From a virus (lineage: Duplodnaviria; Heunggongvirae; Uroviricota; Caudoviricetes): a DNA stretch of 4,906 bases. The stretch lies in IMG/VR virus record IMGVR_UViG_2657245112_000028; one strand, written 5' to 3'. Positions 1 to 4,906 of the stretch are shown one piece after another. The notes below the pieces were generated by a model. The model was not told the DNA's origin. It saw only the letters and a list, made by a program, of their open reading frames with translations, and ran no database searches. How positions within the stretch are numbered: the first letter of the stretch is position 1; every line of letters starts with the position of its first letter. The position numbers and the translations under genes were made by a program.

Positions 1-38
1 TATAAATTCTGATTAGCCAGGTAACACAGTGTTATGAC

Positions 39-66
39 AGCCCGCCGGTTCAGGCGGGCTTTTTTG
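39..66 (+). terminator. Rho-independent terminator ending the upstream gene
   Basis: GC-rich inverted repeat agcccgcc (39-46) / ggcgggct (53-60) with a 6-nt loop, immediately followed by a T-run (61-65). Sits just upstream of the stf ribosome-binding site. Confidence 0.75.
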
Positions 67-76
67 TGGGGTGAAT

Positions 77-3037
77 ATGGCAGTAAAGATTTCAGGTGTA
101 CTGAAAGACGGCACAGGAAAACCGGTACAGAACTGCACAATCCAGCTGAAAGCAAAACGTAACAGTACCACGGTGGTGGTGAACACGCTGGCCTCAGAAA
201 ATCCGGATGAAGCCGGGCGTTACAGCATGGACGTTGAGTACGGTCAGTACAGCGTTATTCTGTTGGTGGAAGGCTTCCCGCCGTCACATGCCAGGACCAT
301 CACCGTGTATGAAGATTCCCGACCCGGTACGCTGAATGATTTTCTCGGTGCCATGACGGAGGATGATGCCCGTCCTGAGGCACTGCGCCGTTTTGAACTG
401 ATGGTGGAAGAGGTGGCGCGTAACGCGTCCGCGGTGGCACAGAACACGGCAGCCGCGAAGAAGTCAGCCAGCGATGCCAGCACATCAGCCCGTGAGGCGG
501 CAACCCATGCGACTGATGCTGCAGGCTCAGCACGCGCAGCCAGCACGTCAGCCGGACAGGCCGCGTCGTCGGCTCAGTCAGCGTCTTCCAGCGCAGGAAC
601 GGCATCAACAAAGGCCACTGAAGCATCAAAAAGTGCTGCCGCTGCAGAGTCCTCAAAAAGCGCGGCGGCCACCAGTGCCGCTGCGGCGAAAACGTCAGAA
701 ACGAATGCGGCAGCGTCACAACAATCAGCAGCCACTTCTGCATCCACCGCGACCACGAAAGCGTCAGAAGCTGCCACCTCAGCCCGGGATGCGTCGGCTT
801 CAAAAGAAGCGGCAAAATCATCAGAAACGAACGCATCATCAAGCGCCAGTAGTGCCGCTTCCTCGGCAACGGCGGCAGGAAATTCCGCGAAGGCGGCAAA
901 AACGTCCGAGACGAACGCTAAGTCTTCTGAGACGGCAGCGGGACAGAGCGCCTCAGCTGCGGCAGGCTCAAAAACAGCGGCTGCGTCGTCTGCCAGTGCC
1001 GCGTCAACAAGTGCCGGGCAGGCCTCAGCCAGTGCCACCGCCGCCGGAAAATCGGCAGAAAGCGCCGCATCATCCGCTTCAACAGCCACAACGAAGGCTG
1101 GCGAAGCCACTGAACAGGCCAGCGCAGCAGCGAGTTCTGCTTCCGCAGCGAAGACATCCGAAACGAACGCGAAAGCGTCGGAAACCAGCGCAGAATCCTC
1201 AAAAACGGCTGCCGCATCGTCAGCCAGTTCGGCGGCGTCATCGGCATCATCGGCGTCTGCTTCAAAAGATGAGGCGACCAGACAGGCGTCAGCAGCGAAG
1301 AGCAGCGCCACGACGGCATCCACGAAGGCGACAGAGGCAGCTGGCAGTGCGACGGCGGCAGCTCAGAGCAAAAGTACGGCGGAATCCGCGGCAACGCGCG
1401 CCGAGACAGCAGCTAAACGGGCAGAGGATATTGCATCCGCCGTGGCGCTTGAGGATGCGAGCACGACGAAAAAGGGGATAGTACAGCTCAGCAGTGCGAC
1501 TAACAGCACTTCCGAGTCACTGGCGGCAACGCCAAAAGCCGTTAAGGCCGCGTATGACCTGGCTAACGGGAAATACACCGCACAGGATGCAACGACAGCA
1601 CAGAAAGGGATCGTTCAGCTCAGCAGCGCGACCAACAGCACATCTGAAATGCTGGCGGCAACGCCAAAGTCGGTAAAGGCAGCCTATGACCTTGCTAACG
1701 GGAAATATACCGCTCAGGACGCTACGACAGCACAAAAAGGAATTGTCCAGCTCAGTAGTGCAACCAACAGCGCATCTGAAACGCTTGCCGAGACACCGAA
1801 AGCAGTGAAAGCAGCTAATGATAATGCGAATGGTCGGGTACCTTCTGCCCGTAAGGTGAATGGTAAGGCGCTTTCAGCGGATATAACACTGACGCCGAAA
1901 GATATTGGTACGCTTAACTCAACAACAATGTCATTCAGCGGTGGTGCTGGTTGGTTCAAATTAGCAACGGTAACCATGCCACAGGCGAGTTCTGTTGTTT
2001 CAATTACGTTGATTGGTGGCGCGGGATTTAACGTGGGGTCACCTCAACAGGCAGGTATATCTGAACTTGTTTTGCGTGCAGGTAATGGTAATCCGAAGGG
2101 GATTACTGGTGCTTTATGGCAGCGCACATCGACAGGGTTTACAAATTTTGCCTGGGTCAATACATCTGGTGATACTTACGATATTTACGTTGCAATCGGA
2201 AATTATGCGACTGGTGTAAATATTCAATGGGATTATACCAGTAATGCCAGCGTGACGATTCATACGTCACCAGCATATTCTGCTAATAAGCCGGAAGGGT
2301 TAACGGACGGTACAGTTTATTCACTCTATACGCCATCAGAGCAGTTTTATCCGCCTGGCGCACCAATCCCGTGGCCATCAGATACCGTTCCGTCTGGCTA
2401 TGCCCTGATGCAGGGGCAGACTTTTGACAAATCTGCATACCCGAAACTTGCAGCCGCTTATCCGTCAGGCGTGATCCCTGATATGCGTGGCTGGACGATT
2501 AAGGGCAAACCCGCCAGTGGTCGTGCCGTATTGTCTCAGGAACAGGACGGCATTAAATCGCACACCCACAGCGCCAGCGCATCCAGTACGGATTTGGGGA
2601 CGAAAACCACATCGTCGTTTGATTACGGCACTAAATCCACGAATAACACCGGGGCTCATACGCACAGTCTGAGCGGCTCTACAAGCTCGGCCGGAGCACA
2701 CTCGCACGTTGATGGTCGCAGGTTTAATACAAGCACTTTTAAAGACACCTATCAGTATGGTTCTACAGCTGTCGGAAGTAACTCATACCAGGTACAAGGG
2801 GCGGTTGGTCTGGGCATTGGCACGATGGCGAATACGAACTCTGCTGGCGCGCATACCCACTCACTGTCCGGCACTGCTGCAAGCGCAGGTGCACACGCAC
2901 ATACTGTCGGTATTGGTGCTCATACGCACTCCGTTGCGATTGGCTCACATGGACACACCATCACCGTTAACGCTGCTGGTAACGCGGAAAACACCGTCAA
3001 AAACATCGCATTTAACTATATTGTGAGGCTTGCATAA
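77..3037 (+). CDS. stf: Side tail fibre protein (lambda Stf family), 986 aa from ATG 77 (ORF track opens at GTG 71)
   Basis: N-terminus [20 protein letters not shown]... matches the lambda/lambdoid Stf N-terminus as I recall it. Purine-rich SD-like gtggggtg lies upstream of ATG 77. Architecture is N-terminal attachment domain, A/S/T-rich shaft, three tandem 44-aa fibre repeats, then a His-x-His-rich C-terminal tip. Stop TAA at 3035-3037 overlaps the tfa start (TAATG). Confidence 0.92.
422..1440 (+). repeat. Low-complexity Ala/Ser/Thr-rich shaft region of stf with recurring K(T/S)SETNA quasi-repeats
   Basis: About 340 codons dominated by A/S/T. The motif (A)KTSETNA(K/A)(S/A)S recurs at about 691-720, 826-850, 898-930 and 1150-1180. 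The GC-rich codon bias produces long spurious ORFs in other frames. Confidence 0.7.
1469..1820 (+). repeat. Three tandem in-frame 132-bp (44-aa) phage tail fibre repeats inside stf
   Basis: [12 protein letters not shown](T/A)SE(S/M/T)LA(A/E)TPK(A/S)[21 protein letters not shown] occurs three times. The K-G codons sit at 1472, 1604 and 1736, giving an exact 132-bp period. The third copy diverges after AVKAA. Resembles the 'phage tail fibre repeat' family (from memory). Confidence 0.85.
2561..2956 (+). other. His-x-His motif cluster (7 motifs) in the stf C-terminal tip, a putative metal-binding needle domain
   Basis: HTH 2561-2569, HTH 2657-2665, HSH 2699-2707, HTH 2852-2860, HAH 2894-2902, HTH 2921-2929, HGH 2948-2956, mostly within G-A-H-T-H-S contexts. 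Confidence 0.6.
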
Positions 3038-3450
3038 TGGCATTCAGAATGAGTGAACAAGCACGGACCATAAAAATTTATAATCTGCTGGCCGGAACTA
3101 ATGAATTTATTGGTGAAGGTGATGCATATATTCCGCCTCATACAGGTCTGCCAGCAAACAGTACCGATATTGCACCACCAGATATTCCTGCTGGCTTTGT
3201 GGCTGTTTTCAACAGTGATGAGGCATCGTGGCATCTCGTTGAAGACCATCGGGGTAAAACGGTTTATGACGTAGCGTCAGGGGACGCGTTATTTATTTCT
3301 GAACTCGGTCCGTTACCGGAAAATGTTACCTGGTTATCGCCGGAAGGGGAGTTTCAGAAGTGGAACGGCACAGCCTGGGTGAAAGATGCAGAAGCAGAAA
3401 AACTGTTCCGGATCCGAGAGGCGGAAGAAATAAAAAACAGCCTGATGTAG
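3037..3450 (+). CDS. tfa: Tail fibre assembly protein Tfa, N-terminal 137 aa, ended by an in-frame amber (TAG) codon
   Basis: [93 protein letters not shown]... is near-identical to lambda-type Tfa as I recall it. The start ATG overlaps the stf stop (translational coupling). TAG at 3448-3450 falls where lambda-type Tfa has CAG (Gln). Confidence 0.85.
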
Positions 3451-3621
3451 GTAGCCAGTGAGCATATTGCGCCACTTCAGGATGCTGTAGATCTGGAAAT
3501 CGCAACGGAGGAAGAAACCTCATTGCTGGAAGCCTGGAAAAAGTATCGGGTGTTGCTGAACCGTGTTGATACATCAACTGCACCTGATATTGAGTGGCCT
3601 ACGAACCCTGTCAGGGAGTAA
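3451..3621 (+). pseudogene. tfa: In-frame 3' remainder of tfa downstream of the amber codon, encoding the conserved Tfa C-terminal domain
   Basis: Same frame as 3037-3450, open for 56 codons to TAA at 3619-3621. Encodes [56 protein letters not shown], the conserved C-terminal region of Tfa proteins. No plausible internal restart codon with an RBS. Confidence 0.7.
3456..3576 (+). repeat. Direct repeat copy A (tfa 3' segment), about 89% identical to 4505-4625
   Basis: Ungapped alignment of 3456-3576 with 4505-4625 (offset 1049 bp) gives about 13 mismatches in 121 bp, with an identical ~40-bp core (caggatgctgtagatctggaaatcgcaacggaggaagaaa). Confidence 0.9.
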
Positions 3622-3635
3622 TCATTGGGATTATG

Positions 3636-3684
3636 CCGCAGCACGTCTTAAGCAAGAACGTGCTGCGGTTGGATGCTATTTTTT
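3636..3684. terminator. Stem-loop between convergent tfa (+) and methyltransferase (-) genes; possible bidirectional terminator
   Basis: Perfect 10-bp inverted repeat ccgcagcacg (3636-3645) / cgtgctgcgg (3659-3668) with a 13-nt loop. On the + strand a T-run (3679-3684) follows after a 10-nt gap. The arms are flanked by A-rich sequence on the minus strand. Confidence 0.45.
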
Positions 3685-4344
3685 CCCTGAAGCGGAAAAC
3701 ATTACTACAGTACCTTGAACCTTGGTTTTAACATTCTCGAAATGCTCTGAGAGTATATGTGTTAAGCCTTCTTCGGAATCTTTTGTGTTTGAAAAGATGC
3801 CTTTCTGATTGTAAATGCGCATCAGTTTTTGACCGAAGCTATTGTGCACAACTCCATCGCCAAGAATTGTGGCTCCGTATAGAGTTCCATCGTCAGTTAA
3901 GGCCTGCGCCGCATTGCGTATTACACAGCTTTTTGTAGATATATTTCCAGGCAGGCAGTGAAGAAGGTAAAACATGGAAATGGAATCAAATTGACCATGT
4001 AACGCCGCGGGATAAGGTTCAAAAACATCATGGCTAATTTTATGTTTAATTTTTGATTCCCCAGCCCTTGTAGATGCCGCGTTCAGGCTAGCTTCGTTCA
4101 AATCCATTAAAGATATCAGACTACTCTCAGGTACGTGAGTAAGGTAAAACCCAGTTCCAACACCAATATCCAGATGGTTGTTACCTAAATGTTCCAGAAA
4201 GTGTGGAAGAAGGTGTTCCTTTGTAGGACATCCCCATGCAAGCCGATTTGATACTCCCAAAACCCACCAGTCATAAAGCTTTAGGGTAAGTGGTGTGTAA
4301 ATTTTAGCCCCATCATCTGTGTTTTTTTTCATTAATTTCACCAT
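3676..4344 (-). CDS. Class I SAM-dependent methyltransferase-like protein (222 aa; possibly 218 aa from the ATG at 4330-4332)
   Basis: Rossmann methyltransferase motifs in canonical order: motif I HLDIGVGTG (aa 57-65); acidic post-I residue in LMDLNE about 17 aa later; motif II-like FDSISMFYLLHCLP; motif III-like LTDDGTLYG. Lies in a visibly AT-rich island, convergent with tfa. A GGTGA SD-like element sits 5 nt upstream of the second ATG (M5). Confidence 0.65.
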   Translation of the reverse strand: MVKLMKKNTDDGAKIYTPLTLKLYDWWVLGVSNRLAWGCPTKEHLLPHFLEHLGNNHLDIGVGTGFYLTHVPESSLISLMDLNEASLNAASTRAGESKIKHKISHDVFEPYPAALHGQFDSISMFYLLHCLPGNISTKSCVIRNAAQALTDDGTLYGATILGDGVVHNSFGQKLMRIYNQKGIFSNTKDSEEGLTHILSEHFENVKTKVQGTVVMFSASGKK

Positions 4345-4400
4345 GTTATAGTTTTATTTGTGAATTAAATCAATTATGGCGATGAATTACAAGGGGTTAA
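4345..4400. promoter_or_regulatory. AT-rich divergent intergenic region, likely holding promoter(s) for the methyltransferase (-) and tfa-like ORF (+); includes the AAGGGG RBS for ORF 4401
   Basis: 56 bp of very AT-rich sequence between divergently oriented ORFs. AAGGGG at 4391-4396 lies 4 nt upstream of ATG 4401. No -35/-10 pair could be assigned with confidence. Confidence 0.3.
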
Positions 4401-4733
4401 ATGCTGCCGCAGCATAGCGATATTGAAATAGCCTGGTATGCTTCGATACAACAGGAGCCGAATGGCTGGAAGACCGTCACCACACAGTTCTACATCCAGG
4501 AATTCAGTGAGTATATTGCGCCACTGCAGGATGCTGTAGATCTGGAAATCGCAACGGAGGAAGAAAGATCGTTGCTGGAGGCATGGAATAAATATCGGGT
4601 ATTGTTGAATCGAGTTGATACATCAGTAGCTCTGGGTATGAAGCTGTTTGTAACTCATGTTACAGTAACAGTCATTACTATCTCGAAGGTGCAAAATGCT
4701 GAGAGATCCCCTCATAATTTCCCCAAAGCGTAA
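4401..4733 (+). CDS. Tfa-like remnant/chimeric ORF (110 aa): 5'-truncated divergent tail fibre assembly gene with an unrelated C-terminal tail
   Basis: Residues 37-75 ([38 protein letters not shown]) repeat the Tfa C-terminal domain seen at 3466-3576. An in-frame TAA lies immediately upstream of the ATG, so the N-terminal part of any ancestral gene is missing. After RVDTS the sequence diverges from the TAPDIEWP ending. Has a good RBS. Confidence 0.45.
4505..4625 (+). repeat. Direct repeat copy B (tfa-like 3' segment), partner of 3456-3576
   Basis: See copy A. Same orientation (direct, not inverted). The two copies bracket the methyltransferase island. Confidence 0.9.
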
Positions 4734-4906
4734 CCATGTGTGAATAAATTTTGAGCTAGTAGGGTTGCAGCCACGAGTAAGTCTTCCCTTGTTATTGTGT
4801 AGCCAGAATGCCGCAAAACTTCCATGCCTAAGCGAACTGTTGAGAGTACGTTTCGATTTCTGACTGTGTTAGCCTGGAAGTGCTTGTCCCAACCTTGTTT
4901 CTGAGC
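4712..4906 (-). CDS. Possible 3' end of an unidentified minus-strand gene running off the window (C-terminal 64 aa: ...[44 protein letters not shown])
   Basis: Minus-strand frame is open for 64 codons from the window edge to a TGA (complement of 4712-4714), while all + frames here are full of stops. No recognisable family, and the start is outside the window. Confidence 0.3.

Follow-up and report, generated by a model that had tools for sequence, protein, structure and literature searches.

The region studied here raises the question of what a single enzyme-like gene is doing between two tail fibre assembly sequences, on the strand opposite to both, and on what kind of substrate its product could act. 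The gene lies in a window of 4,906 nucleotides (the whole stretch of DNA analysed) from a virus of the Caudoviricetes. The initial annotation had described a 222-aa ORF on the minus strand, carrying four class I methyltransferase motifs and located in a low-GC island, and had seen in it a moron with a probable non-DNA substrate, a possible part in phage-host conflict, and the best candidate in the region for an undescribed function.

The homology to sequenced prophages indicates that the window is the distal part of the late operon of a lambda-like prophage. Indeed, positions 1-4698 are 99.98% identical to the prophage that occupies the DLP12 site in E. coli O103 RM8385; there, the genes follow in the order L, K, I, J, lom, stf, tfa, methyltransferase, tfa fragment, alpha/beta-hydrolase, ompT, envY, ybcH and nfrA. 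The side tail fibre gene stf (71-3037, plus strand, 988 aa) carries the Pfam domains phage_tail_N, Phage_fiber_2 and Collar and is annotated as a prophage tail fibre in RM8385; it is the final structural gene of the late operon ahead of tfa. The tail fibre assembly gene tfa (3037-3621, plus strand, Caudo_TAP), which RefSeq lists as an 'internal stop' pseudogene, is inactivated by an in-frame TAG at 3448-3450. This stop replaces, by a C-to-T change, the CAG codon present in phage PhiR26_1, and is the product of one of the only 2 differences that separate the two tfa sequences over 585 nt.

On the other side of the island, positions 4401-4698 (plus strand) hold a tfaX-type fragment that corresponds to the 3' portion of another tfa allele (Caudo_TAP, E 1e-17, profile positions 75-121 only) and is listed in annotations as a partial protein for tail fibre assembly. 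In the window this fragment is truncated by an IS element, of which the terminal part is present at 4699-4906 (IS4-family ISVsa5, IS10-like; 98-99% identical to copies annotated as ISVsa5). Homology to RM8385 ends at 4698, and the ISVsa5 part, which runs into the window end, is outside the mobile cassette described below. Between the two tfa sequences, the only long ORF of positions 3622-4400 is the ybcY-type class I SAM-dependent methyltransferase ORF (3676-4344, minus strand, 222 aa). The low-GC character of the island was borne out, with 40.6% GC for 3622-4400 and 40.8% for the ORF itself (GC3 35.9%), versus 47.4% for tfa and 55.1% for stf, and the 56-bp spacer upstream of the ORF, described as AT-rich, has a GC content of only 26.8%.

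Comparison with databases leaves little of the idea that this is an undescribed gene: by sequence identity it is ybcY of the DLP12-type prophage, already named and catalogued. The same gene is recorded in RefSeq as WP_000239881.1 ('class I SAM-dependent methyltransferase') and in PHROG 2132 (function unknown), which the protein matches over 218 of 218 profile positions (E 8e-157). A K-12-derived locus, tfaD', ybcY', tfaX', matches window positions 3183-4630 at 97.4% DNA identity. In K-12 DLP12, ybcY is annotated as a frameshifted pseudogene, whereas the copy in the window is intact; conversely, the downstream tfaX is interrupted by the ISVsa5/IS10-like element in the window, unlike in K-12 DLP12. 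Phages ev243, 2G7b and PhiR26_1 encode exactly the same protein (100% identity), and PhiR26_1 labels it 'putative uncharacterized protein YbcY'.

The four motifs that had been read from the protein fall, in the order given, on strands of the predicted fold. In the AlphaFold2 model (pLDDT 89.5, pTM 0.86), a seven-stranded beta sheet with flanking helices is present, as in class I Rossmann-fold methyltransferases, with HLDIGVGTG on beta1, LMDLNE on beta2, FDSISMFYLLHCLP on beta4 and LTDDGTLYG on beta5. Four Pfam models score above their gathering thresholds, namely Methyltransf_12 (37.6 bits versus 30), Methyltransf_23 (28.8 versus 27), Methyltransf_25 (27.7 versus 27) and Methyltransf_11 (24.6 versus 21.2). 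The cofactor site was tested against the class I convention, in which an acidic residue of beta2 serves the ribose and an acidic residue after beta3 the adenine; G61, G63 and G65 (the GxGxG of motif I, after beta1), D81 (end of beta2) and D106 (after beta3) are all invariant in the family alignment. Profile and structure searches thus confirm the class I fold but reach no characterised subfamily. Scores against the NCBIfam equivalog models are well under the respective cut-offs (RquA 16.9 bits versus 175, CpaM 17.4 versus 180), no UbiE or UbiG NCBIfam model is reported for the protein, so that it does not class with the quinone methyltransferases, and a search of a viral structure library brought no added information.

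Orphan DNA methylases are common in phages, and cargo next to tail fibre genes often includes defence genes. The protein could thus be conceived as a DNA methyltransferase (orphan, anti-restriction or epigenetic) or as part of a defence or counter-defence system, as the initial annotation had in part proposed, and PADLOC does return a match to mad2. That match is nevertheless partial and at noise level (E 0.0033, 14.3 bits), and it is the only one. Pattern searches found neither [DNS]PP[YFWH] nor PCQ in the protein, in agreement with what had first been noted; the position of motif IV reads YLLHCLPG rather than the signature of N6A/N4C methylases, and with PCQ absent, the lone 'ENV' at residue 203 is located in the C-terminal strands, outside a C5 context. 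The AlphaFold2 model has no target-recognition or other extra domain, no DNA methylase is found among the top 50-60 structural matches, and no nuclease partner lies nearby. Neighbouring genes are not conserved over 80 loci and most homologues are lone chromosomal genes, which further argues against a defence system. A DNA or defence function is hence very improbable and already largely refuted; the view that DNA is the less likely substrate stands, and the proposed role in conflict finds no support.

We examined the expression signals of ybcY as read from the DNA. The annotation is probably four codons too long, the true start being the ATG at 4332-4330 (M5), which would yield a product of 218 aa: homologues measure 218-224 aa, all aligned members have M5, and the alignment with PHROG 2132 begins at residue 5. 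A putative Shine-Dalgarno sequence, GGTGA (4342-4338), precedes this ATG by 5 nt. The divergent spacer at 4345-4400 (minus strand) holds two candidate promoters. In the first, a -35 element TTGATT (4373-4368) and a -10 element TATAAC (4350-4345) are separated by 17 nt, an exact combination that occurs a single time in the window (4345-4373, minus strand) with 0 expected by chance; the same hexamers are given for the ybcY promoter by Shimada et al. (PMC3946193). In vitro, the spacer of the 97%-identical K-12 allele is bound in SELEX by sigma-70 RNA polymerase (RpoD holoenzyme), and an H-NS site has been reported there (PMC3946193). A generic promoter scan, which gave no excess of promoter-like sites, indicated the second candidate, TTAACC (4400-4395) and CATAAT (4378-4373) with 16-nt spacing. 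We note that the -10 element of the first candidate directly abuts the annotated ATG of ybcY; either the ybcY mRNA would be nearly leaderless, or the second candidate is the working promoter.

At its other end, ybcY faces tfa across a hairpin (3635-3668), the convergent stem-loop of the first description. Its folding energy is -30.7 kcal/mol on the plus strand and -25.4 kcal/mol on the minus strand (z = -4.8 and -4.4), with 0 of 200 shuffled sequences as stable, and it is a probable terminator shared by tfa and ybcY. A scan for canonical terminators made no call at this position, which we relate to the sequence itself: the loop of the perfect 11-bp stem exceeds the limit of the scan, and the T-run begins 9 nt past the stem. 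With these signals at its two ends, ybcY would be a transcription unit separate from the late operon, on the opposite strand.

The carriers of ybcY show how the gene travels. The island is flanked by a direct repeat of 128 nt, made of sequence from the 3' end of tfa, with the left copy at 3449-3576 and the right copy at 4498-4625 (both on the plus strand, 88% identical). Comparison of carriers delimits a travelling unit of ~1 kb (~3636-4625) that comprises the hairpin, ybcY, the promoter spacer and the tfaX fragment, the latter being co-linear with ybcY in all carriers examined. In phage Kati, in E. coli ECMA0423 (two copies) and in Shigella flexneri, homology to the window extends from 3636 to 4625-4630, the right edge of the cassette. 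Position 3636 is the first base of the hairpin stem, and 4625-4630 is the end of the right repeat. In phage ev243 homology begins at 3502, within the left repeat and after a different tail module, while in phage ev099, whose tfa is 97.8% identical, the methyltransferase is absent and homology ends at 3599. Since the edges of the cassette fall in or beside the repeated tfa 3' segment across carriers, this repeated end is the recombination seam for the exchange of cargo.

The same comparison bears on whether ybcY belongs to the core of these phages. The ORF was found, at 95% identity or more, in 3,832 of 5,426 complete E. coli genomes (71%), in 4,877 places and with up to four copies per genome. 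It is also present in 15 phage records, which include the isolates ev243, 2G7b, PhiR26_1, PhiR29, PhiR30, PhiR49, PhiR68_2, Kati and Turner. When we considered the 38 phage records that hold at least 80% of the tfa segment, 9 carried ybcY, and Lambda, HK629, HK630, 2H10, ev099, mEp332 and mEp460 are among the phages that lack it. Thus, ybcY is an optional, variable cargo of lambda-like prophages. The gene being optional rather than a conserved core gene, its interpretation as a moron and not a structural gene stands, in keeping with the promoter hexamers, the hairpin, the difference in GC content (40.8% versus 47-55%) and the presence/absence pattern among phages. As a genomic object, ybcY is an ordinary, catalogued moron; what holds of the initial interpretation is the moron and the non-DNA methyltransferase, and what does not is the undescribed gene and its defence role.

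An optional gene may also be carried to no effect, and in E. coli ybcY could be a neutral hitch-hiker, an intact, H-NS-silenced passenger of the tfaX/ompT cargo region that has no phenotype, even if its product is catalytically competent. The H-NS site reported at the promoter is in line with such silencing, and the frameshift in K-12 has no known consequence. The sole phenotype reported for a ybcY mutant is the lack of an effect on Hha toxicity (PMC2408971). Alleles within E. coli differ by 0-3 substitutions per pair, so that dN/dS does not measure selection within this species, and truncated variants exist. Nevertheless, most carriers by far have an intact ORF (6,589 sequences belong to the full-length cluster, P0002), and the gene is retained by viable phages of limited genome size. 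The promoter region is kept in all aligned carriers, and in one lineage, strain ECMA0423, its -10 element is improved to TATAAT. Moreover, sequence comparisons place the wider family under strong purifying selection, with dN/dS values of ~0.10-0.11 versus enterobacterial orthologues, for every one of which dS is near or past saturation. On balance, a neutral passenger seems to us rather unlikely, and we retain the reading of ybcY as a functional moron.

The family to which YbcY belongs is large and widespread. A word-indexed search gave 2,296 matches, at least 590 matches come from species-representative genomes, and an exhaustive search of clusters at 50% identity gave ~197 below E 1e-30 and ~799 below 1e-10. 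Members are found across phyla, among others in Enterobacterales, Pseudomonas, Dyella, Vibrio, Legionella, Nostoc, Acidobacteria, Oceanobacillus, Pseudarthrobacter and Plesiocystis, as well as in lichen-forming fungi, and nearly all are ~220 aa in length. They share a signature that consists of an N-terminal Y-x7-YDWWVL..SN..AW.C.T, the YLLHCLPG loop after beta4, and an HN.FG.KLM..YN.KGIF.N insert. Named distant relatives were considered as a lead and set aside; their sources give just 'class I SAM-dependent methyltransferase' or an automatic 'UbiE' label. The gene is mostly a stand-alone chromosomal gene of many bacteria, which indicates that its function is not phage-specific, and the phage copy would have been captured out of this widespread chromosomal family.

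We kept 80 loci for neighbourhood analysis, in 76 of which, non-identical to the window copy, the protein is 41-68% identical. Clustering of 998 ORFs from these loci identified no conserved partner, which suggests a self-sufficient, stand-alone enzyme. The neighbourhoods differ from genus to genus, and neighbours that recur among the 80 loci are either generic (MCP, SDR, LysR-size, ABC-F-like, GST and response regulator genes) or reflect lineage-specific synteny. The Salmonella Typhimurium homologue, STM1638 (56% identity), adjoins rydC and cybB; that of Enterobacter is placed after liv transporter genes, that of Yersinia is near a cellobiose PTS, and that of Aeromonas is flanked by transposases. 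Further functional leads were discarded. A logic like that of BioC/BioH, in which a methyl ester is formed and an esterase acts with it, was considered because the E. coli prophage cargo and the Enterobacter locus each have an alpha/beta-hydrolase close to the methyltransferase gene, yet the two hydrolases are dissimilar (20% identity over 100 residues, E 0.005, not significant) and neither recurs elsewhere; the phage hydrolase has 494 aa and a signal peptide. A choline/betaine link was suggested by a BetT-type choline transporter beside the gene on plasmid pEA29 of Erwinia amylovora, but BCCT transporters are absent from the other loci examined, and the neighbour of ~685 aa that recurs in Pseudomonas and Erwinia proved to be a methyl-accepting chemotaxis protein. 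Lastly, the enrichment of tfaX in a Tn-seq experiment under itaconate stress (PMC5064937) is unvalidated and uninformative for ybcY, because the background was K-12, where ybcY is a pseudogene.

Other mobile elements carry the gene as well. Homologues with 65-67% identity are present on ~600 Klebsiella plasmids; on a hypervirulence plasmid the gene directly adjoins rmpA, rmpD, rmpC and peg-344 (BAH65943.1 of pK2044, 65% identity), and on an IncF plasmid it clusters with genes for a transcriptional repressor, a GTP-binding protein and the zinc metallochaperone ZigA. The rmpA-adjacent gene figures among the markers of liver-abscess or hypermucoviscous isolates (PMC5126061, PMC9846069), and as a marker linked to rmpA it was found in 100% of liver-abscess isolates versus 2-11% of sputum/urine isolates (PMC5126061). 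On pEA29 the homologue is 53% identical. In Escherichia albertii it lies within an NleG/OspG/Cdt island. A relative in the vap island of Prescottella equi, pVAPA_0470, is 32% identical and has degenerate SAM-binding motifs; it is kept in all three vap island types and has been ascribed 'a potential regulatory role' (PMC5434932).

Host-interaction loci thus recur beside the family: lom and ompT in E. coli phages, rmpA, rmpC and peg-344 in Klebsiella, the NleG/OspG/Cdt island in E. albertii, and pEA29; the same list includes the degenerate, possibly regulatory relative of P. equi. These associations are suggestive and could be mere linkage. If the YbcY family spread horizontally as an enzyme for the methylation of lipid head-groups in the envelope, or of a metabolite of host origin or related to stress, and measurably aided colonisation or virulence, this would explain why the gene recurs beside such loci on unrelated mobile elements; we hold such a direct contribution to be doubtful.

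As to what kind of METHYLTRANSFERASE is at hand, we weighed the main substrate classes, and tested the two most suggestive resemblances, Rt-PmtA and PfPMT, with verified sequences. An RNA (tRNA or rRNA) or protein methyltransferase seems unlikely. The 218 residues account for the core and a lid, leaving no RNA-binding extension, and no partner is present; no NCBIfam RNA-methyltransferase model is matched at even E 0.01, nor is there a match to rRNA methylases of the AMR type. In addition, the patchy spread on plasmids, prophages and islands is unlike that of housekeeping RNA modification enzymes.

The fold resembles those of small-molecule and lipid methyltransferases (PmtA, JHAMT, PMT and UbiG), and YbcY is a member of none of these families. 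One specific possibility is that it is a phospholipid or phospho-base N-methyltransferase, similar to PmtA or PMT, which would methylate phosphatidylethanolamine or a related amine and so alter the envelope of the lysogen. The best Foldseek match is indeed an R-type PmtA (PDB 8ys9; E 9e-12, TM 0.62-0.68), and the adjacent cargo genes lom and ompT encode envelope factors. R-type PmtA and YbcY have a similar length, a class I core and an N-terminal helical lid with a YD motif, but they are only 16% identical and differ in the phosphate-binding residues. PmtA uses Tyr10 as general base, Tyr17 and Arg29 to anchor SAM, and His117, Ser120 and His147 to bind phosphate (PMC11446283). When the family profile was aligned to Rt-PmtA by hhalign (96% probability, E 3e-9), the alignment was limited to residues 53-181, the common core; the N-terminal catalytic segment remained unaligned, and His117 and Ser120 were replaced by Tyr126 and His129.

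The comparison with PfPMT (PDB 3uj6) gave a similar picture, at a probability of only 76%. The invariant His129 falls on the catalytic His132 of PfPMT, and the spacing Y16-x7-Y24 equals that of Y19-x7-Y27 in the latter enzyme, whose Tyr19/His132 dyad and C-terminal substrate lid are the hallmarks of PMT. The Tyr region, however, is unaligned, and YbcY ends ~50 residues short of the C-terminal lid domain. The His after beta4 is also aligned in juvenile hormone acid O-methyltransferase (JHAMT, PDB 7ec0), with LLHC in YbcY versus ILHL and LHW in PfPMT and JHAMT, both of them small-molecule class I enzymes with 13-21% identity to YbcY. Many unrelated methyltransferases score as high as these, and for both PmtA and PMT the alignments stop short of the diagnostic N-terminal region. 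Methylated phosphatidylethanolamine is not known from E. coli. Taken together, a PmtA- or PMT-like activity appears improbable; the alignments restricted to the core rather suggest a protein that would methylate N or O on a small substrate, either polar or amphipathic, and that stands outside every characterised family.

The conserved residues allow a tentative mechanism to be drawn. A cytoplasmic enzyme would bind SAM through G61/G63/G65, D81 and D106, and would methylate an N or O nucleophile, S being less likely. The acceptor could be held by three elements particular to the family, namely by the N-terminal lid (Y16, Y24-D25-W26-W27, N33, W37 and C39), by the loop after beta4 (Y126, H129 and C130) and by the insert between beta5 and beta6 (H167-N168 and Y178-N179-K181). 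The most likely acceptor would be a small molecule or a lipid head-group rather than DNA. The lysogen would most likely gain a metabolic or stress-related benefit, the phage or virion not being served directly.

We therefore favour, as the likely explanation, a ybcY that is carried as a moron, would be transcribed from a sigma-70 promoter of its own under the influence of H-NS, would share the hairpin with tfa as terminator, and would encode an active, stand-alone methyltransferase of a non-DNA substrate, to the benefit of the lysogen. The interest of the gene lies in its family, which is deep and strongly conserved, and which prophages as well as the virulence or fitness plasmids of important pathogens have mobilised time and again. 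Identification of the substrate would annotate thousands of genes together and would tell if the rmpA-linked copy contributes in hypervirulent Klebsiella or is a bystander there. As K-12 is a natural null, gain-of-function metabolomics would be simple.

Among known systems, STM1638 and BAH65943.1 are genuine members of the family, which carry all signature motifs and are lone genes like ybcY, but which are chromosomal and plasmid-borne, respectively, with no tail fibre context. In its genomic setting ybcY is comparable to the lambdoid morons, such as lom and bor of lambda and ompT of DLP12-type prophages, which are also compositionally distinct inserts in or after the late operon, variably present among phages and transcribed separately from their own promoters to their own terminators. 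These known morons are envelope proteins with described roles, whereas YbcY is predicted to be a cytoplasmic enzyme.

A single C-to-T change, where phage PhiR26_1 has CAG, introduces an in-frame TAG into tfa at 3448-3450 and thereby inactivates the prophage's tail fibre assembly gene; the two versions of the gene differ at only 2 of 585 nucleotides. RefSeq likewise marks tfa as inactivated in the O103 strain RM8385. The same gene gives a full-length match to the Rfam family IS009 (RF02111; 3380-3578, plus strand, 223.7 bits), which lies wholly within the tfa coding sequence and spans the left 128-nt repeat. We suspect that this family models a conserved segment of prophage tfa rather than an independent RNA gene. 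Repeats were also seen in stf, where tandem units of approximately 132 nt with 80% identity (1472-1821) correspond to Phage_fiber_2 repeats (13 protein letters not shown), and are preceded by a long low-complexity stretch rich in Ala, Ser and Thr (approximately 400-1440).

At the 3' end of the methyltransferase gene, a 45-aa ORF on the plus strand (3594-3731) overlaps both the hairpin and the end of ybcY. It is annotated as 'hypothetical protein' by RefSeq and as 'nucleocapsid protein' in K-12-type records, but very probably does not represent a real gene. The E. coli ECMA0423 lineage (L016, L019) carries two copies of the cassette, and upstream of the methyltransferase both have the consensus -10 hexamer, TATAAT, in place of TATAAC.

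The right end of the window (4699-4906) is the terminus of an ISVsa5 element (IS4 family, IS10-like) inserted in the tfaX fragment. The O103 prophage, otherwise 99.98% identical, does not have this insertion and runs on into a frameshifted alpha/beta-hydrolase gene, followed by ompT. This cargo gene, always located between tfaX and ompT, is intact in phages ev243 (L003, 3971-5455) and PhiR26_1 (L004, 1614-3098), where it encodes 494 amino acids with an N-terminal signal peptide, and frameshifted in RM8385. Like that of the neighboring ybcY, its product is uncharacterized.

Some records labelled as Bacillus or Campylobacter also contain E. coli lambdoid sequence, with 94.6-100% identity at the protein level for the 'Bacillus sp.' MAG PUUB54_bin.016 (L017) and B. 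thuringiensis CT-43 plasmid HM037272 (H131), and at the DNA level for Campylobacter phage CJLB-4 (H85). Contamination or mis-binning of these public records is the likely explanation.

Relatives of ybcY are found on virulence plasmids. On the Klebsiella pneumoniae hypervirulence plasmid pFRPDR_1, a 65% homologue (L099, 7995-8648) adjoins rmpA, rmpD, rmpC and peg-344; among the matches listed, most records of Klebsiella plasmids hold two matching places each. A divergent member of the family, pVAPA_0470, is located in the vap island of Prescottella equi pVAPA1643 (L098, 7001-7717). Its SAM-binding motifs are degenerate (GVGTG is replaced by GARSA and HDVF by IGSV, and the beta2 Asp is lost), and the family-specific C-terminal motifs are retained. 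pVAPA_0470 may thus be a non-catalytic relative, in keeping with the 'regulatory role' that the literature suggests for it.
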